Positions 38 to 16,112 of a DNA stretch of 16,162 nt are shown in pieces. The notes beneath the pieces were generated by a model. That model ran no database searches. It saw only the letters and a program-made list of their open reading frames with translations, and was not told the origin of the DNA. The stretch is from a virus, in UHGV virus genome UHGV-0124814; one strand, written 5' to 3'. The first letter of the stretch is position 1; every line of letters begins with the position of its first letter. The translations under genes were made by a program, and so were the position numbers.

Positions 38-706
38 ATGGTGAAATCAATGAAAAAAAACACAGATGATGGGGCTAAAATTTACACACCACTTACCCTA
101 AAGCTTTATGACTGGTGGGTTTTGGGAGTATCAAATCGGCTTGCATGGGGATGTCCTACAAAGGAACACCTTCTTCCACACTTTCTGGAACATTTAGGTA
201 ACAACCATCTGGATATTGGTGTTGGAACTGGGTTTTATCTTACTCACGTACCTGAGAGTAGTCTGATATCTTTAATGGATTTGAACGAAGCTAGCCTGAA
301 CGCGGCATCTACAAGGGCTGGGGAATCAAAAATTAAACATAAAATTAGCCATGATGTTTTTGAACCTTATCCCGCGGCGTTACATGGTCAATTTGATTCC
401 ATTTCCATGTTTTACCTTCTTCACTGCCTGCCTGGAAATATATCTACAAAAAGCTGTGTAATACGCAATGCGGCGCAGGCCTTAACTGACGATGGAACTC
501 TATACGGAGCCACAATTCTTGGCGATGGAGTTGTGCACAATAGCTTCGGTCAAAAACTGATGCGCATTTACAATCAGAAAGGCATCTTTTCAAACACAAA
601 AGATTCCGAAGAAGGCTTAACACATATACTCTCAGAGCATTTCGAGAATGTTAAAACCAAGGTTCAAGGTACTGTAGTAATGTTTTCCGCTTCAGGGAAA
701 AAATAG
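38..706 (+). CDS. Class I SAM-dependent methyltransferase, substrate unknown (cargo gene in the b-region position)
   Basis: 222-aa ORF; glycine-rich SAM-binding motif 'LDIGVGTGFYL', then 'LMDLNE' and 'FDSISMFYLLHCL'; visibly AT-rich; ATG at 38 lacks an obvious SD, alternative ATG at 50 is preceded by GGTGA. Confidence 0.7.
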   Translation: MVKSMKKNTDDGAKIYTPLTLKLYDWWVLGVSNRLAWGCPTKEHLLPHFLEHLGNNHLDIGVGTGFYLTHVPESSLISLMDLNEASLNAASTRAGESKIKHKISHDVFEPYPAALHGQFDSISMFYLLHCLPGNISTKSCVIRNAAQALTDDGTLYGATILGDGVVHNSFGQKLMRIYNQKGIFSNTKDSEEGLTHILSEHFENVKTKVQGTVVMFSASGKK

Positions 707-760: not shown

Positions 761-1345
761 TTACTCACTGACAGGGTTCGTAGGCCACTCAATATCAGGT
801 GCAGTTGATGTATCAACACGGTTCAGCAACACCCGATACTTCTTCCAGGCTTCCAGCAACGAGTTTTCTTCCTCCGTTGCGATTTCCAGATCTGCAGCAT
901 CCTGAAGCGGCGCAATATGCTCACTGGCTACCTGCATCAGGTTGTTTTTTGTTTCTTCCGCCTCCCGGATCCGGAACAGTTTTTCTGCTTCCGTATCCTT
1001 CACCCAGGCTGTGCCGTTCCACTTCTGAAACTCCCCTTCCGGCGATAACCAGGTAACATTTTCCGGTAACGGACCGAGTTCAGAAATAAATAACGCGTCC
1101 CCTGACGCTACGTCATAAACCGTTTTACCCCGATGGTCTTCAACGAGATGCCACGATGACTCATCACTGTTGAAAACAGCCACGAAGCCAGCCGGAATAT
1201 CTGGCGGTGCAATATAGGTACTGTTTGCAGGCAGACCTGTATGAGGTGGAATATATGCGTCACCTTCACCAATAAATTCATTAGTTCCGGCCAGCAGATT
1301 ATAAATTTTTATGGTCCGTGGTTGTTCACTCATTCTGAATGCCAT
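761..1345 (-). CDS. tfa: Tail fiber assembly protein Tfa
   Basis: 194-aa ORF '[31 protein letters not shown]...' matching lambda Tfa from memory; start ATG overlaps the stf stop (TAATG). Confidence 0.9.
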
Positions 1346-4041
1346 TATGCAAGCCTCACAATGTAGTTAAATGCGATGTTTTTGACGGTGTTTTCCGCGT
1401 TACCCGCAGCGTTAACGGTGATGGTATGTCCATGTGAACCAATCGCAACGGAGTGCGTATGAGCACCAATACCGACAGTATGCGCGTGTGCACCTGCAGA
1501 TGCTGCTGTGCCGGACAGTGAGTGGCTATGATTACCATCTGTACTGGTATTCGCTAACCACCCCGTAGACATACCTACTGAGCCTTGTACACCCCAGGTA
1601 TTTTGACCTGAGCTTGTATAACCATATTGATAAGTATCTTTAAAAACACTGGGGTTAAATCGACGGCCATCTCTATGGCTGTGATTACCAGCTGCATTCG
1701 TGCTGCCACTTAAACTATGGGTATGCGCACCAGTGTTATTCGTGGATTTAGTGCCGTAATCAAACGACGATGTGGTTTTCGTCCCCAAATCCGTACTGGA
1801 TGCGCTGGCGCTGTGGGTGTGCGATTTAATGCCGTCCCGTTCCTGAGACAATACGGCACGACCACTGGCAGGTTTGCCCTTAATCGTCCAGCCACGCATA
1901 TCAGGGATCACGCCTGACGGATAAGCGGCTGCAAGTTTCGGGTAGGCAGATTTGTCAAAAGTCTGCCCCTGCATCAGGGCATAACCAGACGGAACGGTAT
2001 CCGATGGCCACGGGATTGGTGCGCCAGGCGGATAAAACTGCTCTGATGGCGTATAGAGTGAATAAACTGTACCGTCCGTTAACCCTTCCGGCTTATTAGC
2101 AGAATATGCTGGTGACGTATGAATCGTCACGCTGGCATTACTGGTATAATCCCATTGAATATTTACACCAGTCGCATAATTTCCGATTGCAACGTAAATA
2201 TCGTAAGTATCACCAGATGTATTGACCCAGGCAAAATTTGTAAACCCTGTCGATGTGCGCTGCCATAAAGCACCAGTAATCCCCTTCGGATTACCATTAC
2301 CTGCACGCAAAACAAGTTCAGATATACCTGCCTGTTGAGGTGAACCGACGTTAAATCCAGTGCCACCAATCAACGTAATTGAAACAACAGAACTCGCCTG
2401 TGGCATGGTTACCGTTGCTAATTTGAACCAACCAGCACCACCGCTGAATGACATTGTTGTTGAGTTAAGCGTACCAATATCTTTCGGCGTCAGTGTTATA
2501 TCCTCCGAAAGCGCCTTACCATTCACCTTACGGTCAGAAGGTACCCGATCATTCGCATTGTCATTCGCTGCTTTAACTGCCTTCGGTGTCGCGGCAAGCG
2601 TTTCAGACGTACTGTTTGTCGCACTGCTGAGCTGTACTATCCCCTTTTTCGTCGTGCTCGCATCCTCAAGCGCCACGGCGGATGCAATATCCTCTGCCCG
2701 TTTTGCCGCTGTCTCAGCGCGCGTTGCTGCGGATTCTGCCGTACTTTTGCTCTGTGCTGCCGCTGTCGCACTGCCAGCAGCCTCTGTCGCCTTTGTGGAT
2801 GCCGTCGTGGCGCTGCTCTTCGCTGCTGACGCCTGTCTGGTCGCCTCATCTTTTGAAGCAGACGCCGATGATGCCGATGACGCCGCCGAACTGGCGGACG
2901 ATGCCGCTGCCGTTTTTGAGGATTCTGCGCTGGTTTCCGACGCTTTCGCGTTCGTTTCGGATGTCTTCGCTGAGGAAGCAGACCTCGCTGCTGCGCTGGC
3001 CTGTTCAGTGGCTTCGCCAGTCTTCGTTGTGGCTGTTGAAGCGGATGATGCGGCGCTTTCTGCCGATTTTCCGGCGGCGGTGGCACTGACTGAGGCCTGC
3101 CCGGCACTTGTTGATGCGGCACTGGCGGACGACGCAGCCGCTGTTTTTGAATCTGCCGCAGCTGAGGCACTCTGTCCCGCTGCCGTTTCAGAAGACCTGG
3201 CGTTCGTCTCGGACGTTTTGGCCGCCTTCGCAGAATTTGCTGTCGCCGTTGCCGAGGAAGCTGCGCTGCTGGCGCTCGAGGCTGCGCTCGTTTCTGATGA
3301 TTTTGCCGCCTCTTTTGAAGCCGACGCATCCCGGGCTGAGGTGGCAGCTTCTGACGCTTTCGTGGTCGCGGTGGATGCAGAAGTGGCTGCTGATTGTTGT
3401 GACGCTGCGGCATTCGTTTCTGACGTTTTCGCCGCAGCGGCACTGGTGGCCGCCGCGCTTTTTGAGGACTCTGCAGCGGCAGCACTTTTTTCCGCTTCAG
3501 TGGCCTTTGTTGATGCCGTTTCTGCGCTGGAAGACGCTGACTGAGCCGACGACGCGGCCTGTCCGGCTGACGTGCTGGCTGCGCGTGCTGAGCCTGCAGC
3601 ATCAGTCGCATGGGTTGCCGCCTCACGGGCTGATGTGCTGGCATCGCCGGCTGACTTCTTCGCGGCTGCCGTGTTCTGTGCCACTGCGGACGCGTTACGC
3701 TCCACCTCTTCCACCATCACTTCAAAACGGCGCAGTGCCTCCGGTCGGACATCATCCTCCGTCATGGCACCGAGAAAATCATTCAGCGTACCTGGTCTGG
3801 AACCTTCATAGACGGTAATGGTCCCGGCATGTGAAGGCGGAAAACCTTCAACCAGCAGGGTGACGCTGTACTGACCATGCTCAACATCCATGCTGTAACG
3901 TCCGGCTTCATCCGGATTTTCAGAGGCCACCGTGTTCACCACCACCGTGCTGCTGGTTCGTCTGGCCTTCAGCACAATGGTGCAGTTCTGTACTGGTTTT
4001 CCTGTGCCATCTTTAAGCACGCCAGAAATTTTTACTGTCAT
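1345..4041 (-). CDS. stf: Side tail fiber protein Stf
   Basis: 898-aa ORF; N-terminus '[22 protein letters not shown]...' matches lambda Stf as recalled; central Ala/Ser/Thr-rich repeats; C-terminal HxH-rich region ending '...[11 protein letters not shown]'. Confidence 0.9.
2690..3700 (-). repeat. Degenerate tandem Ala/Ser/Thr-rich repeats inside stf (recurring '...AAKTSETNA...', '...SSASSAASS...', '...STATTK...')
   Basis: Repeated peptide blocks read from the translation; the GCN-rich DNA creates long spurious ORFs in other frames on both strands. Confidence 0.6.
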
Positions 4042-4192: not shown

Positions 4193-4792
4193 TCAGAAAC
4201 GGTATCCGATACCAACAATAAATGCATCCGTTCGCCAGTCGCCACTACCGGAACCTTCATAAGCAAGGTCAATGGTCACGGATTCGGTCGGATTAAACTG
4301 CACGCCAGCCCCCCACGCCAGAGACGTGTTGCTGTGGCGACCGTCATCACTTCCGGTCAGCACATCGTGCGTTTTCCCCTTGTTGTCAGTTACGCGGAGA
4401 TAATCCCCGGAGAAAGTCGAAATACGGCTGTAAGCCACACCCGCCATCGCATACGCGCTGAACCATTCATTCACGCGCACAGACGGCCCCGCCATTACGC
4501 TGAACCAGCGGTTACGAACGGAATCTTCATGCCAGCGGGTATCGCTGTAACGGGTCAGCTGGCGATTCTTGTCTCCTGCATAGCTGAATGACGTCACCAG
4601 CCCCAGTGTGTCCGTAAACTCATAACGGTATTTCACGTTAATCCCGTTCAGATCATCACTGCCGGGGACGTTCGTCGAGGCATGAAGATACCCCGCGCTC
4701 AGCGTGGACTGATGTTCAGACGCCCATGCAGGCGCACCGGATACGGCCAGACAAATGGCTGCGGACAAAATTGCTGCACAAACTTTACGCAT
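4193..4792 (-). CDS. lom: Lom outer-membrane protein (Ail/Lom/PagC family beta-barrel)
   Basis: 199-aa ORF 'MRKVCAAILSAAICLAVSGAPAWASEHQSTLSAGYLH...GIGYRF' with signal peptide and C-terminal aromatic residue; near-identical to lambda Lom as recalled; SD GAGAGG upstream. Confidence 0.9.
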   Translation of the reverse strand: MRKVCAAILSAAICLAVSGAPAWASEHQSTLSAGYLHASTNVPGSDDLNGINVKYRYEFTDTLGLVTSFSYAGDKNRQLTRYSDTRWHEDSVRNRWFSVMAGPSVRVNEWFSAYAMAGVAYSRISTFSGDYLRVTDNKGKTHDVLTGSDDGRHSNTSLAWGAGVQFNPTESVTIDLAYEGSGSGDWRTDAFIVGIGYRF

Positions 4793-4862: not shown

Positions 4863-6026
4863 TCAACGAATACTGATGCCGGAAGCGGCTTTTTTGGTCA
4901 CAATCACCGTACAGTCGGTGATATTGCCTGCCCCCTGATTGCCTTTCTGGAAAATCTTAAACTCCAGAGTGACGCTACCACCACCACTAGGCATATCAAT
5001 AACTGCACTGTAACTACCGGGAATGGCCCCTTTAGTTTCTCTGGATGCGATTAATACGCCGTTTTTGCGAACTTCAAAACCATAACCCGTGTATCGCGTG
5101 CCTCCTGGGTTATTTCCGCTCCCCGGATCGTCATACGCTATACCGTTAAAAATAATGGGCGGAATAATAATCTGGCGGTCAAAGTTATGATCATCGCTGA
5201 TGGTGACTGTAACCGTACCGTTTGGTGTTTCCGTGTTACCCCACGTACCGACTTTTTTCGGGAAGGCTTTTGATACAGCTTTAACGAAATCCCCTCTGAC
5301 CTGGGTCGCCTCCAGCATGCCCTTAATCGTACAGTTCTGGTTAATCTTGACATTGTTGAGCGTTCCTGAGTTCGCATTCACACTGCCACTGATATCCGCA
5401 TTTTTAGCGGTCAGCTTTCCGTCTGATGTCAGGGAAAATACCGGAGGACTGCCACCGCTGGTAATGGTGGGGGCCGTCAGGCGCTTCAGGAACACGTCGT
5501 TCATGAATATCTGGTTGCCCTGCGCCACAAACATCGGCGTTTCATTCCCGTTTGCCGGGTCAATAAACGCGATACGGTTAGCGGCAACCAGAAACTGGCT
5601 CAGCTTGCCTTCCTCCGTGTCCTCCATGCTGAGGCCAATACCCGCGACATAATGTTTGCCGTCTTTGGTCTGCTCAATTTTGACGCCCCACATGGCATTC
5701 CATTTATCGTTAGCGTCCTTCCACTCTTTCGAAAACTCCTCCAGTCTGCTGGCGTTATCTTCCGTCAGCTCAAAGTTTTCCAGCAGTTCCTTGCCGAGAT
5801 GCGTTTTATTGATCAACCCTTTATAAAAATTCAGATAACCTTCCGCATCATCGCTCGCCCGACCGACGGCCTCCACAAATGCCGATTTACCAACGGTGTT
5901 CACGCTGCGGATATAAAAGTAATAATCATAACCTGGCTTAATATTGCTACTGGCGGCTATCCAGTACAGCGCCGTACCAAGATAACGCGCGCTGGTTTCA
6001 ACCTGCCTGATATCGATAAGCGGATT
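4863..6026 (-). pseudogene. J: C-terminal fragment (~387 codons) of tail tip/host-specificity protein J; N-terminal part of the gene deleted
   Basis: Open frame from 6026 down to the stop at 4863 with no ATG at its 5' end (first candidate is GTG at 5903); translation resembles the lambda J C-terminus as recalled. Confidence 0.8.
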
Positions 6027-6352
6027 TTATAGGCACGGGTATCACCTTCATTAAACCACACCAGCAGCGCCTGCTGCCCCTGCTCTCCGGGCATCCACGC
6101 CAGCGTGAAGCTGGTATCTCCGGCGGATTTCTGACCCTGCCCGGTCGCGGTCCAGTCCGCATCTTCATCATCGAGATAACTGTCGTCATAGGACTCAGCG
6201 GTCAGTTCGCCGGGCGTCAGGTCTTTAACTTTAGCCAGACGCGACCAGTCAACGTCTGAAAGCGGGTTCGCATAAGGGTCGCCGCTCCCGTTATAAACCC
6301 ACAGGGTGGTTCCGGCACCTTTCACCGGTATTGCTGGATTTGGTACAGGCAT
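5957..6352 (-). pseudogene. V: Truncated major tail tube protein V (N-terminal ~120 aa, then out-of-frame read-through into J sequence)
   Basis: '[20 protein letters not shown]...TRAYKIR' matches the lambda gpV N-terminus as recalled, then changes to '[20 protein letters not shown]' and stops; lambda V is about twice as long. Confidence 0.8.
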
Positions 6353-6359
6353 ATCGTCC

Positions 6360-6755
6360 TCACATTTCATAGGTAATGACATAAGTCAGATCGGCAGAAC
6401 TCCACAGGCCCGCATCATCGTCGCGCCGGTAGTCATAGCCGCTGGCCACCATACTGGTGATCAAATCTGACAGTGCCGGGACATCGCTCATCACCGGATA
6501 AATCCGGGACTCCATCCACGAATCCAGCTCTGAATCCGGCACCTGAGCAGGCAGGAAAACTTCAATATGCAGCTCCGCCTGCCAGGTATCACTGTCCAGC
6601 TCTTCGCCCGTGTATTCAGCGCCGGTGAGATAAACGGCAATTGCCGGAAAATCCGCCTCATCAAAAACAGCGGGGCGACCATCAAAAAGCGTCGCCCCGG
6701 TGTCATGCTTCTCCAGTGCATCCAGTACGGCTGCACGGAGTTCAGTATGTTTCAT
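6360..6755 (-). CDS. U: Minor tail protein U (tail terminator), apparently intact
   Basis: 131-aa ORF '[36 protein letters not shown]...' matching lambda gpU in sequence and length; start ATG overlaps the upstream stop (ATGA). Confidence 0.9.
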
Positions 6756-8930: not shown

Positions 8931-9398
8931 TCATCGAAGGCATTGCGTCCTGATGTATTCCTGAAGCGTTCTCAGTGCTGTTTGGTCGCGGATAATTCCG
9001 TCCCGGATACCGAGAACGTTTCGTCCAGCAACTGGAGAGAGTTCGACGGTGGCATCATTGCCCATGCCGGAGGCGCTGGAGGTTTCGGCTGAGGATGGCA
9101 CAGGGCATTTTCCTTTGACGAGCACCCTGCCACCATTATCAAGCTTGCGACGAAGAGCATCATTTTCAGCTTTCGCATCAGCTAACTCCTTCGTGTATTT
9201 TGCATCGAGCGCAGCAACATCACGCTGACGCATCTGCATGTCAGTAATTGCCGCGTTCGCCAGCTTCAGTTCTCTGACATTTTTGTCGCGCTGGGCTTTG
9301 TAGGTAATGGCGTTATCACGGTAATGATTCAGCCCCAGACTAAGCACACCACAGGCTACCAGCAGGACAATAATCACCACACACAGAACACGGTTCAT
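8931..9398 (-). CDS. Rz: Rz i-spanin
   Basis: From ATG at 9398 (SD GGTGGTGA): '[17 protein letters not shown]...[60 protein letters not shown]...' closely resembling lambda Rz; the longer track ORF starts at an upstream codon. Confidence 0.85.
8972..9178 (-). CDS. Rz1: Rz1 o-spanin lipoprotein, embedded in Rz in the +1 frame
   Basis: 68-aa ORF '[21 protein letters not shown]...' with lipobox 'VAGC' and proline-rich stretch '[11 protein letters not shown]'; embedded position typical of Rz1. Confidence 0.8.
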
Positions 9399-9497
9399 AT
9401 CACCACCAACGGATTGTCCAGACCAGAACAGCAATGGCCACAATACGAATGGCAAATGCCATTGCCCGAATAAGTTCAGCACTCATCTTTTTAAAGT

Positions 9498-10433
9498 TCA
9501 CGATTTCAGCGCAATGACCAGTTTTGCCAGCCCATACAGCATCGGAGACACAGCAATAGCGTATGTATTTTTCCAGTAATACGTCGTGTCACCACAAATC
9601 CACGGCACATTTACAGCACTGCCACCATGACACTGCGCGTTAAACACAGTGAGGTCAGCACGAAACTGCTTCAGCATGGCTGTAAACAGCGCAGGTTGCT
9701 GTGCGTAGGTGGCGGCGCTCATGTCAAACTCTCCCTGCATCCAGCACACCGCCAGCAACACATTTTTCGGGTTCTTCTGTAATGCCGCTTTGGTGCGTGC
9801 GATCAGGTCCTGATATAACGGTTTACCCACACCCCAGCGTGCCGAATCCTGGCTGGCCCCCGTGTCCGCACTGAATGTCCCCTCCGCGCCCTGGGTGAAT
9901 GCCGAACCACCACGACAGCATGGTACCAGCAGGATCCCCGCGTTATTCGGGATATACGGAAGCAGTTTTTTGGCAATATGTAAGCCCTGGCCGACACAGC
10001 CGTACTGCCCTTTGCTCAGGTCTGCCTTCGGATGATTCAGCGTACTCATATCCTGCACATCATGCAGACAGTGGTCAGCCGGGATGATGTCGTTATACGT
10101 ACAACTCTCTCCACCCGGAGTTACCGTGCTGCGGCGCGCCAGCTGTTTAATGCGCGGATCCGGAGCATCGTAAGAATCCGGTAACGGAAGCCCTTCACCG
10201 TAGGCCATGCCGTTGGACTGTCCGGCAAGCACAACCACGTAGAACCAGTCCGGCTCAGATGAAGGGCCGACCTGTGGATCTCCTTCAATAGCCACCGCCT
10301 GCATCAGTGTGTACGGCGTAATGGCAACCGGTCCGCCATATGGCTGCCAGCCCTCTTTCAGTTTGTGTGTCAGCTTTTCCGCAAGGTCTGACGGCGACGC
10401 CGCCCTGACAACATCATAGTGTTTAAATGCCAT
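9498..10433 (-). CDS. Prophage NanS-p-like sialate 9-O-acetylesterase (N-terminal DUF1737-like segment plus esterase core), probably C-terminally truncated
   Basis: 311-aa ORF with 'VVLAGQSNGMAYGEGLPLPD', 'GILLVPCCRGGSAF', 'CWMQGEFD', 'WICGDTTYYWK' resembling E. coli NanS/YjhS as recalled; strong SD GGGAGGA; ORF ends ~100 nt before Rz. Confidence 0.8.
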   Translation of the reverse strand: MAFKHYDVVRAASPSDLAEKLTHKLKEGWQPYGGPVAITPYTLMQAVAIEGDPQVGPSSEPDWFYVVVLAGQSNGMAYGEGLPLPDSYDAPDPRIKQLARRSTVTPGGESCTYNDIIPADHCLHDVQDMSTLNHPKADLSKGQYGCVGQGLHIAKKLLPYIPNNAGILLVPCCRGGSAFTQGAEGTFSADTGASQDSARWGVGKPLYQDLIARTKAALQKNPKNVLLAVCWMQGEFDMSAATYAQQPALFTAMLKQFRADLTVFNAQCHGGSAVNVPWICGDTTYYWKNTYAIAVSPMLYGLAKLVIALKS

Positions 10434-10655: not shown

Positions 10656-10658
10656 GCC

Positions 10659-10686
10659 CACAAGAAAGCCCCTCCGGAGAGGGGCT
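10659..10686 (-). terminator. Terminator-like hairpin on - strand (AGCCCCTC-UCCG-GAGGGGCU then UUUCUUGU), back-to-back with the + strand terminator
   Basis: 8-bp stem with tetraloop and T-rich tail on the - strand, downstream of the tRNA cluster and upstream of the esterase gene. Confidence 0.35.
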
Positions 10687-10923
10687 GGAGAGTGGCGCTA
10701 TGTGCCATTGCATGGTGCCGGGTGCCTCCCGGTGAATTCAGTACCAGCACCTGAATCCGCGATTATCCCATATACCTACTCGCTGATTGCCCCTCCGCAC
10801 AGGGGGATTCACCATGCCAGTTTCTTTTAACAAACTCCCCGCAAACCAGACAACAGTCAACCGTCTGAATTGTGAGACATTTAAAAAAAAAGGCCCGCAA
10901 AAGCGAGCCAGGGAAAATAAGTG

Positions 10924-11000
10924 TGGCGCGTTGTACTGGATTCGAACCAGTGACCGATTGCTTAGAAGGCAATTGCTCTGTCCGGCTGAGCTAACAACGC
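10924..11000 (-). tRNA. tRNA-Arg (anticodon TCT)
   Basis: Reverse complement folds as cloverleaf: acceptor GCGTTGT/ACAACGC, D-arm GCTC..GAGC, anticodon stem ATTGC/GCAAT with loop CTTCTAA, T-arm ACTGG-TTCGAAT-CCAGT, encoded CCA. Confidence 0.85.
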
Positions 11001-11013
11001 ATGATGCAGATAA

Positions 11014-11090
11014 TGGACCGCCATCGGGGACTTGAACCCCGCGCAGCCAGCTTCGAAGGCTGGCGCTCTTTCCTGATGAGCTAATGGCGG
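11014..11090 (-). tRNA. tRNA-Arg (anticodon TCG)
   Basis: Cloverleaf: acceptor CCGCCAT/ATGGCGG, D-arm GCTC..GAGC, anticodon stem CCAGC/GCTGG with loop CTTCGAA, T-arm CGGGG-TTCAAGT-CCCCG, encoded CCA. Confidence 0.8.
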
Positions 11091-11097
11091 TATGTGA

Positions 11098-11173
11098 TGG
11101 TGGCCCTTGCTGGATTTGAACCAGCGACCTGGCGATTATGAGTCGCTCGCTCTCACCACTGAGCTAAAGGGCC
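11098..11173 (-). tRNA. tRNA-Ile2-like (anticodon CAT; could formally be Met)
   Basis: Cloverleaf: acceptor GGCCCTT/AAGGGCC, anticodon loop CTCATAA, T-arm GCTGG-TTCAAAT-CCAGC, CCA; overall very similar to E. coli tRNA-Ile2 as recalled. Confidence 0.8.
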
Positions 11174-11222: not shown

Positions 11223-11678
11223 TCAAACGATTAAATCCTGAACTTCCCTGACTGTCTGCTCAAAACGTCCGGTCTCCAGTTCAACGCCAATCGCACGACG
11301 CCCGAGCGCCAGTGCCGCTTTTACCGTTGAACCTGAGCCCATAAAAAAATCTGCAACCTGGTCTCCCGGACGACTGCTCGCGTTGATTATCTGCTGCAAC
11401 ATTTCTGCCGGTTTTTCGCACGGATGTTTCCCTGGATAGTACTGCACCGGTTTATACGTCCACACATCGGTGTACGGCACCTGCACCGTCACACCGAAAT
11501 ACCTCCGCAAATTTTTATATTCACTCAGCAGTTCCATATACTGCCGGTTCAGCTCACTGTATGTGCTGACCAGTTGGTAATGGGACTTTTCCAGTTCTCC
11601 CCGCTGATGTTTCTCTTCTGCCACCCGGGCAAACAGCGACTGTAATTTCAGATAATCGCTTTCGTTCGGTATCCGGCG
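11223..11678 (-). pseudogene. C-terminal fragment of a phage DNA N6-adenine/N4-cytosine methyltransferase; N-terminal half absent
   Basis: Frame open from 11678 with no ATG (first start-like codon is GTG at 11624); contains 'HPCEKP' and C-terminal SAM motif 'FFMGSGST' but no DPPY-type motif. Confidence 0.65.
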
Positions 11679-12222: not shown

Positions 12223-14694
12223 ATGAGTAAAGTCTTTATTTGCGCCGCCATTCCGGACGAACAGGCAATAAAGGAAGAAGGTGCAGTCGCTGTAGCCACT
12301 GCCATTGAAGCTGGCGACGAACGCCGTGCTCGAGCAAAATTTCACTGGCAATTCCTGGAACATTATCCGGCTGCTCAGGACTGCGCTTATAAATTTCTTG
12401 TTTGCGAGGATAAACCCGGTATACCCCGCCCTGCCCTCGATTCCTGGGATGCTGAATATATGCAGGAAAACCGCTGGGATGAGGAGTCTGCTTCCTTTGT
12501 CCCGGTTGAGACTGAATCCGATCCGATGAACGTCACTTTTGACAAGCTGGCCCCTGAAGTACAGAACGCTGTCATGGTTAAGTTCGACACATGTGAAAAC
12601 ATCACCGTTGATATGGTTATTAGCGCACAGGAATTGTTGCAGGAAGACATGGCAACATTCGACGGACATATCGTTGAAGCGTTGATGAAAATGCCAGATG
12701 TTAACGCCATGTATCCGGAGCTTAAGCTGCATGCCATCGGGTGGGTTAAGCATAAATGTAAGCCTGGTGCCAAATGGCCCGAAATTCAGGCAGAGATGCG
12801 CATCTGGAAAAAACGTCGCGAAGGTGAACGCAAGGAAACCGGAAAATACACGTCTGTTGTTGATCTCGCCCGCGCCAGAACCAATCAACAGCACACTGAA
12901 AATTCAACAGGAAAAATCAACCCGGTCATTGCTGCCATTCATCGCGAATACAAGCAGACATGGAAAACACTGGATGACGAACTGGCCTACGCTCTCTGGC
13001 CTGGTGATGTGGATGCCGGAAACATTGACGGCAGCATCCATCGCTGGGCAAAAAATGAAGTTATCGACAACGACCGCGAAGACTGGAAGCGTATCTCGGC
13101 ATCAATGCGCAAACAGCCTGATGCCCTTCGCTACGACCGCCAGACTATTTTTGGCCTTGTCCGTGAACGTCCGATCGACATTCACAAAGACCCTGTGGCA
13201 CTGAACAAATACATTACTGAATACCTGACTACAAAGGGCGTGTTTGAAGATGAAGGAACAAATCAGAGCGCAACTGATACTCTCTCGTCGCCAGTACCAG
13301 AAACTGATGCAGTGGAAACGGCAATTCCGGACAACGAAAAAACCGAATGCAAAGTGGAAGTCGAACCATCTGTAGAACGTGAGGGGCCGTTCTACTTCCT
13401 CTTCACCGACAAGGATGGCGAAAAATACGGTCGCGCAAACAAACTTTCTGGTCTGGATAAGGCGCTGTCTGCTGGGGCTACTGAAATCACGAAAGAAGAA
13501 TATTTCGCCCGCAAAAACGGTACATACTCAGGTTCACAACAAAATACTGGTGCATCTGACACGACCGCACAACCAGGGTCAGTAAAAGTTACCGCTGACG
13601 AAGTAAACAAAATTATGCAGGCAGCCAATATCAGCCAGCCTGACGCCGATGAACTGCTTGCAGTATCACGTGGTGAATTTGTTGAAGGGATTAGCGACCC
13701 GAATGATCCGAAATGGGTAAAGGGGATTGAAACCCGCGATTCTGTAAACCAGAACCAGCAAGAATCGGAACAGAACGACCAGAAAGCGGAACAAAACAGC
13801 CCAAATGCGTTACAAAACGAGCCAGAAACGAAACAGCCTGAATCAGTGGCGCAACAGGAAGTGGAAAAAGTCTGCACCGCCTGCGGTCAGACCGGCGGCG
13901 GCAACTGCCCTGATTGTGGCGCGGTAATGGGCGACGCAACATACCAGGAAACATTCGATGAAGAGTATCAGCCTGAAGTTCAGGAAGATGATCCGGAGGA
14001 AATGGAAGGCGCTGAACATCCACACAAGGAGAACACTGGCGGCAATAAGCATCACGATAGCGATAATGAAACTGGCGAGACGGCAGATCACTCAATTAAG
14101 GTGAACGGTCATCAAGAAATCACATCCACCAGCAGGACGTGTGACCATCTAATGATCGACCTTGAAACCATGGGAAAAAATCCTGATGCCCCGATCATCT
14201 CAATAGGTGCAATATTTTTCGATCCGCAAACCGGAGATATGGGACCGGAATTTAGTAAGACTATCGATCTGGAAACTGCTGGCGGAGTCATTGATCGGGA
14301 CACCATTAAATGGTGGCTTAAGCAATCACGCGAAGCGCAATCTGCCATTATGACCGATGAAATCCCGTTAGATGATGCACTGTTACAATTGCGGGAATTT
14401 ATCGACGAAAACTCCGGTGAATTTTTTGTTCAGGTTTGGGGAAATGGAGCCAACTTCGACAACACGATTTTGCGCCGTTCATACGAACGGCAGGGGATCC
14501 CCTGCCCGTGGCGTTACTACAACGATCGCGATGTACGCACAATCGTTGAGCTGGGGAAAGCCATAGACTTCGATGCCAGAACGGCTATTCCATTCGAAGG
14601 TGAGCGCCATAATGCACTTGATGACGCCCGTTACCAGGCAAAATACGTTTCAGCTATCTGGCAAAAACTGATCCCGAGTCAGGCTGATTTTTAA
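12223..14694 (+). CDS. Large prophage early-region protein with C-terminal DEDDh (DnaQ-like) 3'-5' exonuclease domain, central Cys4 zinc-ribbon-like motif and acidic linker
   Basis: 823-aa ORF with SD GAGGT; C-terminal motifs 'MIDLETMG', 'WGNGANFDNT', 'HNALDDARY'; 'CTACGQTGGGNCPDCG'; position immediately upstream of xis/int. Confidence 0.8.
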   Translation: MSKVFICAAIPDEQAIKEEGAVAVATAIEAGDERRARAKFHWQFLEHYPAAQDCAYKFLVCEDKPGIPRPALDSWDAEYMQENRWDEESASFVPVETESDPMNVTFDKLAPEVQNAVMVKFDTCENITVDMVISAQELLQEDMATFDGHIVEALMKMPDVNAMYPELKLHAIGWVKHKCKPGAKWPEIQAEMRIWKKRREGERKETGKYTSVVDLARARTNQQHTENSTGKINPVIAAIHREYKQTWKTLDDELAYALWPGDVDAGNIDGSIHRWAKNEVIDNDREDWKRISASMRKQPDALRYDRQTIFGLVRERPIDIHKDPVALNKYITEYLTTKGVFEDEGTNQSATDTLSSPVPETDAVETAIPDNEKTECKVEVEPSVEREGPFYFLFTDKDGEKYGRANKLSGLDKALSAGATEITKEEYFARKNGTYSGSQQNTGASDTTAQPGSVKVTADEVNKIMQAANISQPDADELLAVSRGEFVEGISDPNDPKWVKGIETRDSVNQNQQESEQNDQKAEQNSPNALQNEPETKQPESVAQQEVEKVCTACGQTGGGNCPDCGAVMGDATYQETFDEEYQPEVQEDDPEEMEGAEHPHKENTGGNKHHDSDNETGETADHSIKVNGHQEITSTSRTCDHLMIDLETMGKNPDAPIISIGAIFFDPQTGDMGPEFSKTIDLETAGGVIDRDTIKWWLKQSREAQSAIMTDEIPLDDALLQLREFIDENSGEFFVQVWGNGANFDNTILRRSYERQGIPCPWRYYNDRDVRTIVELGKAIDFDARTAIPFEGERHNALDDARYQAKYVSAIWQKLIPSQADF

Positions 14695-14755: not shown

Positions 14756-15025
14756 ATGAGCGAACAGTACCTGATAACGCTCGACGAGTGGAAACCAAAA
14801 CGGTTCAGTCTCCCAATAACAAACACTACCCTGGTGAAATACGGAAAACTAGGATACATCGTTCCAAGACCACAAAAAATTCGTGGGCGTTGGCTGATAG
14901 ATCGCCGAGCAGTATTTGTTGGGCCTGGTGAAACGGGAATTGCGCCGGAAATTCATACTGGCGATGATGATGCACTGAAGGAGATTTTAACTCATGTCAC
15001 CGAGGCCACGAAAAAACAGCACTGA
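14756..15025 (+). CDS. xis: Excisionase (Xis-like)
   Basis: 89-aa ORF from ATG at 14756 (SD GGAG 8 nt upstream), immediately upstream of and overlapping int by 32 nt. Confidence 0.65.
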   Translation: MSEQYLITLDEWKPKRFSLPITNTTLVKYGKLGYIVPRPQKIRGRWLIDRRAVFVGPGETGIAPEIHTGDDDALKEILTHVTEATKKQH

Positions 15026-16112
15026 CGTAGCCGGTCTTTACGAAAAGTTTGATCGCAGAACTGGCAGAGTTTACTACCAGTATAAAAATCCTGTGACTGG
15101 AAAATTTCACGGACTCGGAACAGACAAAGGTAAGGCAGAAAAAATCGCTTCCACAGCCAATCAGCGAATAGCTGCAGCAGAAGCTGAATATTTCATGCGC
15201 AAAATTGATGAAAGTCCGTCAGCAACAAAACGTCGGGGTATCAGATTAAAGGCATGGGTTGATCGATATCTGAAAATACAGGACACGCGACTGAAAAATG
15301 GAGATATTGCAGCTACAACTCACAAAGAAAAAACTCGAATGGCTGCATACCTGGTTTCCCGTCTGGGAAACCCCCCATTGAAAGAACTGGAAGTAAGAGA
15401 CTTTGCATTAATACTGGATGAGTGGCTGGATAAAGACATGGTCAGCACAGCGAGAGTAAATCGTGGATTATGGGTTGATATTTATAAAGAAGCACAGCAT
15501 GCAGGGGAAGTTCCTCCTGGATGGAATCCTCCGGAGGCTACCCGTAAACCGATCCCTAAAGTAACCAGAGCCAGGCTCACCATGGAAGACTGGCAAAAAA
15601 TTTACAATGCAACGCCTGAAAAACACTTTATCCGTAACGCAATGCTTCTTGCGATTGTTACTGGTCAGCGCCGTGATGACATTTGCCACATGCGTTTTTC
15701 AGATGTGTGGAACGAACACTTGCATATCACCCAGGGAAAAACCGGAATGCGTCTGGCGTTACCGCTTACACTACGCTGTGATGCCATTGGGATAACGTTA
15801 AAAGAAGTTATTGATGGGTGCCGAGACAGAATATTAAGTCCATATCTAATCCATAGTCGGCACCAGAAACAACCGAAGCCGATGAGTAAAGACAACCTGA
15901 GCGACTACTTTGCCAAAGCACGGGATCTGGCTGGGATAATTCCACCAGCAGGAAAAACTCCGCCAACATTTCATGAACAACGCTCTCTATCAGAACGGCT
16001 GTACCGTGCACAGGGTATCGATACAAAAACATTACTAGGACATAAAGTCCAGGCAACCACCGATCGCTATAACGATACTCGAGGTCAGGAATGGGTTAAG
16101 CTGGTTATTTGA
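14994..16112 (+). CDS. int: Tyrosine site-specific integrase, lambda Int family
   Basis: 372-aa ORF; C-terminal catalytic region '...TGQRRDDICHMRFSDV...', 'HEQRSLSERLY', 'LLGHKVQATTDRYNDTRGQEW' parallels lambda Int RHR-Y motifs; distinct from lambda Int itself. Confidence 0.9.
   Translation: MSPRPRKNSTDVAGLYEKFDRRTGRVYYQYKNPVTGKFHGLGTDKGKAEKIASTANQRIAAAEAEYFMRKIDESPSATKRRGIRLKAWVDRYLKIQDTRLKNGDIAATTHKEKTRMAAYLVSRLGNPPLKELEVRDFALILDEWLDKDMVSTARVNRGLWVDIYKEAQHAGEVPPGWNPPEATRKPIPKVTRARLTMEDWQKIYNATPEKHFIRNAMLLAIVTGQRRDDICHMRFSDVWNEHLHITQGKTGMRLALPLTLRCDAIGITLKEVIDGCRDRILSPYLIHSRHQKQPKPMSKDNLSDYFAKARDLAGIIPPAGKTPPTFHEQRSLSERLYRAQGIDTKTLLGHKVQATTDRYNDTRGQEWVKLVI

Follow-up and report, generated by a model that had tools for sequence, protein, structure and literature searches.

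Organization of the stf-tfa region

The 16,162-nucleotide virus genome UHGV-0124814 (hereafter the window, meaning this whole stretch) carries an intact gene for a side tail fibre (Stf), whose C-terminal part is rich in His-x-His (HxH) motifs, together with the gene of its putative assembly chaperone (Tfa). The genes of this region are all encoded on the minus strand and follow the order J-lom-stf-tfa known from the late operon of phage lambda, which is the position of a lambda-type stf:

4863-5903, minus strand: J, C-terminal 346 amino acids (aa) only
4193-4792, minus strand: lom, between the J C-terminus and stf
1345-4041, minus strand: stf, side tail fibre gene, an uninterrupted open reading frame (ORF) translated into 898 aa plus stop
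761-1345, minus strand: tfa, tail fibre assembly chaperone gene, 194 aa, uninterrupted, with a start codon that overlaps the stf stop codon

Stf is 85% identical to lambda Stf over its N-terminal 286 aa. Residues 1-134 match the Pfam family PF08400 phage_tail_N (E=4e-70), and a sequence search of PDB aligned residues 1-94 with the tail fibre chain 9e7m_Ta of the solved lambda tail structure (E=3e-47). Closer to the C-terminus, residues 673-720 correspond to the Pfam Collar domain (PF07484, E=5.6e-12), and five stretches within the last 161 aa match PF03335 (Phage_fiber, 'Phage tail fibre repeat') with 34.2 bits against a cut-off of 20. The latter is a 14-residue repeat model only and is silent on metal binding. 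Tfa belongs to the Pfam family PF02413 Caudo_TAP (E=3.7e-44) and to PHROG 105 (tail fiber assembly), and shares 94% identity (183/194) with lambda Tfa. The gene directly downstream of stf is thus the chaperone gene that an earlier, sequence-only reading of this DNA had assumed.

Seven HxH motifs in the C-terminal part of Stf

Positions 1348-1830 of the minus strand encode Stf residues 738-898 (161 aa). This segment contains seven HxH motifs:

1813-1821, minus strand: HxH motif 1, H741/743 (SHTHS)
1717-1725, minus strand: HxH motif 2, H773/775
1675-1683, minus strand: HxH motif 3, H787/789
1522-1530, minus strand: HxH motif 4, H838/840
1480-1488, minus strand: HxH motif 5, H852/854
1453-1461, minus strand: HxH motif 6, H861/863
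1426-1434, minus strand: HxH motif 7, H870/872

All 14 histidines of the segment are paired in this way, and the pattern GxHxH fits six of the seven motifs. The remaining 737 residues of Stf contain four histidines and no HxH motif. When the 161 residues were shuffled, HxH occurred 1.1 times on average and seven motifs were reached in one of 20,000 shuffles. The sequence-only reading had pointed to an HxH cluster in the last ~160 residues. The four strings that it quoted are all found, and the cluster lies far beyond what shuffling produces by chance. Its inventory was incomplete, since six motifs were listed and the SHTHS motif at H741/743 was overlooked; the strand, which it left unstated, is minus.

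The repetition exists at the level of the protein motif, and at the DNA level it is represented only by short imperfect direct repeats. Tandem Repeats Finder detected no tandem DNA repeat in the HxH region, and an Rfam scan of the window gave no match in 1348-1830. Three ORFs in alternative frames or on the opposite strand (1356-1538, 1710-1895 and 1717-1917) were dismissed, as they lie wholly within a strongly conserved coding frame.

Homology to the receptor-binding needle of T4 gp37

A phmmer search of solved structures aligned Stf residues 656-898 with PDB 2XGF, the tip with which the T4 long tail fibre protein gp37 binds its receptor (E=3.8e-85), and a profile built from 59 homologues matched the same needle with E=5.7e-107. 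In a seven-sequence alignment, the Stf C-terminus is 71% identical to T4 gp37 801-1026 (over 226-243 residues) and 78% identical to lambda Stf. The seven HxH motifs of Stf pair up one by one with those of T4 (H883/885, 915/917, 929/931, 966/968, 980/982, 989/991 and 998/1000), so that T4 H929/H931 correspond to H787/H789 in Stf. Two structural glycines of T4, G921 and G964, are kept as G779 and G836, and the core residue F970 is replaced by L842, as in lambda.

In T4 gp37, the collar domain D10 consists of residues 811-881 plus 1010-1026, and the needle domain D11 is inserted in it, with a stem formed by 882-931 and 960-1009 and a tip formed by 932-959 (PMC6957217). The needle is lined by seven coordinated iron atoms, and phages with alanine in place of the iron-binding H929 or H931 no longer form plaques (Islam et al. 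2019, PMC6957217). Transfer of the domain limits of PMC6957217 to Stf divides the region as follows:

1825-2040, minus strand: N-terminal part of the collar (residues 668-739; T4 D10 811-881), from the 2XGF/gp37 alignment and Pfam Collar
1675-1824, minus strand: descending stem (residues 740-789) with HxH motifs 1-3, from the T4 alignment
1549-1674, minus strand: tip (head) subdomain (residues 790-831; T4 932-959), the presumed receptor-binding surface
1399-1548, minus strand: ascending stem (residues 832-881) with HxH motifs 4-7, from the T4 alignment
1348-1398, minus strand: C-terminal closing strand, back into the collar (residues 882-898; T4 1010-1026)

Identity to T4 is high on both sides of the tip. 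It amounts to 62 of 79 aligned positions in residues 656-737, 41/52 in residues 738-789 (47/52 to lambda) and 32/44 in residues 838-881 (40/44 to lambda). The closing strand is identical to T4 at 16 of its 17 positions and to lambda at all 17, and it is invariant or nearly so in the 59 homologues.

Conservation of the motifs among homologues

When 1.84 billion representative proteins were searched exhaustively with HMMER, 1746 relatives were retrieved at E-values of at most 0.001, including 269 at 1e-30 or below. Among the best 150 of these, 114 carry both the collar anchor and the conserved C-terminus, and the HxH statistics were computed from these 114 representative homologues. In this set, 96% of the histidines that follow the collar fall within HxH motifs, and the most frequent number of motifs per protein is 7, within a range of 4 to 10. 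The alignment of 59 homologues shows the histidines of motifs 1, 5, 6 and 7 in every sequence (59/59) and those of motif 2 in 58 of them. The sequence-only reading was to be abandoned if the motif proved absent from functional homologues. It is kept in lambda and phage 9g (nine motifs each), in Gifsy-1 (five) and in PhiR26_1; Klebsiella phage GZ7 has four.

One of the homologues, P0001 (938 aa), has the collar anchor twice, and ten HxH motifs follow the first copy. This protein may have arisen by tandem duplication or by fusion of two needle modules.

A divergent tip between motifs 3 and 4

The segment between the two stems departs sharply from its surroundings. Protein identity in residues 790-837 is 6/30 to T4 and 12/45 to lambda, against 73-94% and 88-100%, respectively, in the stems, collar and C-terminal strand. 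The DNA follows the same pattern: identity to T4, lambda or 9g is 37-44% in the tip segment and 59-96% in the stems, collar and C-terminal strand. For lambda taken separately, it is 79-84% in the stem and collar, 41% in the tip and 96% in the last 17 codons. Flanking the tip, two GNHSH boxes form a 26-nt direct repeat (1523-1548 and 1676-1701) of 81% identity, the best DNA repeat found.

The tip subdomain is 14 residues longer than its T4 equivalent, and the residues critical for receptor recognition in T4 are replaced (N937D, G940R, G942N, G943P and S947K). Consequently, the receptor specificity of T4 cannot be assumed for this fibre. Nor can binding to OmpC, as the tip sequence is also unlike that of lambda. 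This tip allele is widespread in Escherichia coli: it was detected in 1142 of 5426 complete genomes (~21%), and the ascending stem in 3794 of them.

Comparison with known fibres

Comparison with T4 gp37 shows that Stf shares its collar and all seven of its HxH motifs, whose order and spacing within the stem are alike. In both phages, a dedicated chaperone gene lies directly downstream of the fibre gene, although it is gp38 in T4 and of the Tfa type here. The two proteins differ in the tip, which is essentially unrelated, and in the rest of the molecule, which is that of a lambda-type Stf and not of gp37.

The resemblance to the Stf of lambda (Ur-lambda) includes the N-terminal tail-attachment domain (85% identity), the C-terminal 229 aligned residues (78%), the chaperone and the gene order. 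The tips are of similar length, 48 residues between the flanking HxH motifs here and 45 in lambda, but differ in sequence. Lambda has nine HxH motifs, owing to an extra FDYGTK repeat in the descending stem and an extra GAHxH rung in the ascending stem, whereas the number in the Stf studied here is that of T4, seven. Its Ala/Ser-rich shaft is longer than lambda's, in a protein of 898 aa; Ur-lambda Stf has 774 aa.

Another close relative is the Stf of Escherichia phage PhiR26_1 (GenBank PV340555.1), the record of which gives E. coli K-12 MG1655 as the host. Over the C-terminal 243 residues, 231 of 240 aligned positions are identical. PhiR26_1 has an identical tip, all seven HxH motifs and tfa downstream. 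The differences consist of a few substitutions before the collar and, across residues 738-898, of A847V in the stem only. PhiR26_1 is, however, a complete 48-kb phage genome, whereas the window holds a deleted remnant.

The relationship between lambda Stf and T4 gp37 and the existence of iron sites at HxH motifs are already known. Lambda gpStf and the T4 gp37 tip have been described as extensively similar in sequence and structure (PMC12617516), earlier reports of HxH motifs in coliphage lambda have been noted (PMC11705849) and a T4/lambda family of receptor-binding proteins has been named (PMC9659904). Judging from its title, as cited in PMC3945230, the study of Montag, Schwarz and Henning (1989) found that the receptor-recognising part of a T4 long tail fibre protein can be functionally replaced by one component of lambda's side tail fibre. 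The Stf of the window is one more allele of this family, in which a seven-rung T4-like needle is combined with a lambda-type fibre and a common E. coli prophage tip.

Two further segments of Stf and one of tfa were noted. The shaft (residues ~115-440; 2722-3699) is a long low-complexity repetitive region rich in Ala, Ser and Thr, with ~60% GC, a strong AT skew and internally repeated blocks. Its length varies, and for this reason homologues with identical tips range from 881 to 935 aa. Residues 440-505 (2527-2724) match structures of the Mu-type tail fibre protein S (5yvq and 8ju3, E ~5e-10), and by this sequence match the segment appears to be a mosaic joint common to siphovirus and myovirus fibres. 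In tfa, the Rfam family IS009 gave a full-length match (804-1002, minus strand, 224 bits against a gathering score of 117) that lies entirely within the coding sequence, on the same strand. This 'family' may simply be conserved tfa coding sequence.

Proposed architecture of the needle

We propose that the C-terminal region of Stf is very probably the distal needle of a lambda-type fibre, a close homologue of the T4 gp37 tip that would likewise be trimeric and filled with metal. The claim that this fibre has a T4-like, metal-stapled distal tip thus agrees with the close homology and with the T4 register of the seven motifs, the metal itself being deduced from the relationship with gp37. The geometry outlined below derives from homology alone.

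Three Stf chains would intertwine. Each chain would leave the collar (~668-739), descend along a thin stem (740-789), form a small tip (790-831) in contact with the host receptor, ascend again (832-881) and end inside the collar (882-898). At each HxH motif, two histidines from each of the three chains would point into the three-fold axis, so that six imidazoles could hold one metal ion octahedrally, as they hold iron in T4. Seven such ions stacked along the core would stand in for a hydrophobic one and give the thin needle rigidity and stability. Tfa, encoded directly downstream, would assist folding and trimerisation, and receptor specificity would reside in the divergent tip, outside the HxH stem.

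Several observations weigh against this proposal, or at least against its details. The tip-adjacent motif 3 (H787/789) is present in only 24 of the 59 aligned homologues and motif 4 (H838/840) in 39. These motifs are absent from many shorter homologues, and hence not every HxH site is indispensable to the fold family. The same patchiness suggests that the needle is modular in length, with rungs gained or lost beside the tip. A structure prediction made from the 59 homologues for the monomer of the presumed trimer had low confidence (mean predicted local distance difference test score, pLDDT, 53; predicted template modelling score, pTM, 0.23), as would be expected of a monomer model if the needle is an obligate intertwined, metal-filled trimer. 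The identity of the metal cannot be read from the sequence. Finally, this stf copy belongs to a prophage devoid of most head and tail genes (see below), and its expression and assembly are doubtful.

The rival explanations concern what the histidine pairs are for. That they are a chance or low-complexity feature without structural meaning can hardly be entertained: the Gly/Ser/Thr/Ala-rich composition of the region is all that speaks for it, and it is refuted by the shuffling result, by the register with a solved structure and by the conservation among the 59 homologues. It is distinctly unlikely, but far less so, that the motifs bind a metal other than iron (zinc or nickel, for example) or that the metal varies from site to site. 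The inability of sequence to specify a metal leaves room for this, and the collar region also matches the short tail fibre structure 9cuy_c (E=3.3e-8); in the T4 short fibre protein gp12, zinc occupies an equivalent HxH site after the collar. However, the metal of the T4 needle is reported to be iron (PMC6957217), and 71% identity to that needle together with identical GxHxH contexts makes the same metal the default expectation.

A different reading places the importance of the motifs mainly in the DNA, where the HxH boxes would act as crossover points flanking a hypervariable tip and allow receptor specificity to be swapped. Tétart and colleagues reportedly proposed recombination mediated by such 'His boxes' in gp37 of T-even phages. 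The direct repeat that brackets the tip is consistent with this, as are the abrupt fall in DNA identity to lambda from the stem and collar (79-84%) to the tip (41%) and the presence of the ascending stem in far more E. coli genomes than the tip allele. On the other hand, the repeats flanking the tip are short and imperfect, and the histidines are invariant in the protein across homologues whose DNA has diverged to ~60% identity. As mutation of HxH histidines is, moreover, lethal in T4 (PMC6957217), selection at the protein level is indicated. We therefore find it rather improbable that the boxes matter mainly as DNA; exchange between them could be an additional role of the same motifs. The trimeric, metal-filled needle remains our preferred explanation of the HxH cluster.

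As a discovery, this matters little: it means that a very common E. coli prophage fibre would carry a metal-stapled needle of the gp37 type. The practical interest lies in the conserved HxH stem, which marks the end of the structural scaffold and the start of the receptor-binding tip. Chimeric lambda Stf fibres are already in use (PMC11338833), and this boundary would be useful for their design in host-range engineering.

A decayed prophage with an intact fibre module

The window represents a heavily deleted lambdoid prophage of E. coli. Apart from the J-lom-stf-tfa block, the following features were identified:

5957-6382, minus strand: V (tail tube) gene, truncated, abutting the J C-terminal 346 aa
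6752-7165, minus strand: Nu1/Z fusion ORF, Nu1 residues 1-31 joined to Z residues 74-190
8931-9482: Rz-like spanin ORF, beginning 16 bases after the end of the esterase gene
9498-10433, minus strand: gene for a DUF1737 + SASA-family carbohydrate esterase
11223-11624: DNA methylase gene, truncated
12223-14694, plus strand: exonuclease gene
14994-16112, plus strand: integrase gene

The joining of the first part of Nu1 with the last part of Z implies that the head genes between them are gone, and the junction of the truncated V with the J C-terminus implies the same for the tape-measure and tip genes. Another deletion is suggested by the interval between the esterase gene and the Rz-like ORF, in which neither a holin nor an endolysin ORF was recognised. 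Neither head genes nor a tape-measure or Q gene are among the ORFs scanned. In none of the complete E. coli genomes does a single place contain at least 80% of the window, and in the best-matching genome the pieces of the window are scattered over 31 kb. Since most tail genes are lost, attachment of the fibre to a tail or virion is probably impossible here, though stf and tfa are intact.

This state of the prophage raises the question of whether the fibre is a relic without present function for the host, with the intact stf-tfa pair persisting either as recently decayed DNA or as a recombination reservoir for incoming lambdoid phages. Such a possibility concerns the role of the module at this locus and not the fold of the protein, and the evidence leaves us evenly divided on it. 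The Nu1-Z fusion, the truncated V, the reduction of J to its C-terminus, the missing head, tape-measure and Q genes and the dispersal of the window in complete genomes all speak for decay. Two defective prophages, Rac and Qin, are known sources from which lambda picks up stf-tfa DNA through homologous recombination (PMC3945230), and this makes a reservoir role plausible. Against a mere relic stand the uninterrupted state of both stf (898 codons) and tfa (194 codons) and the near identity of the needle and tip to those of phage PhiR26_1.

Taken together with the divergence of the tip, these data allow a more speculative proposal, which we regard as rather doubtful. The tip may be specific for a receptor that is neither OmpC nor lipopolysaccharide, the ones used by T4 and lambda, and intact stf-tfa cassettes in dead prophages may be maintained as a stock of exchangeable tips, captured by infecting lambdoid phages through recombination at the HxH stem.

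Other features of the prophage

We take the esterase encoded at 9498-10433 to be NanS-p-like, of the kind found in Stx-type prophages. A cluster of three phage tRNA genes occupies 10924-11173 on the minus strand, for Arg-UCU, Arg-UCG and a Met/Ile-type tRNA with a CAT anticodon. This cluster resembles the ileZ-argN-argO cluster of Stx-type lambdoid phages; a toxin gene is absent after it. Just downstream of the tRNA genes, the small RNA family STnc100 of Rfam gave a full-length match (10656-10846, minus strand, 139 bits against a gathering score of 47). On the other side of the fibre module, beyond tfa, a gene for a class I S-adenosylmethionine-dependent methyltransferase (222 aa; 38-706, plus strand) occupies a cargo position and is oriented convergently to the tail genes. 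Many E. coli genomes have this gene annotated as a neighbour too, as does PhiR26_1, where it is described as a YbcY-like protein.

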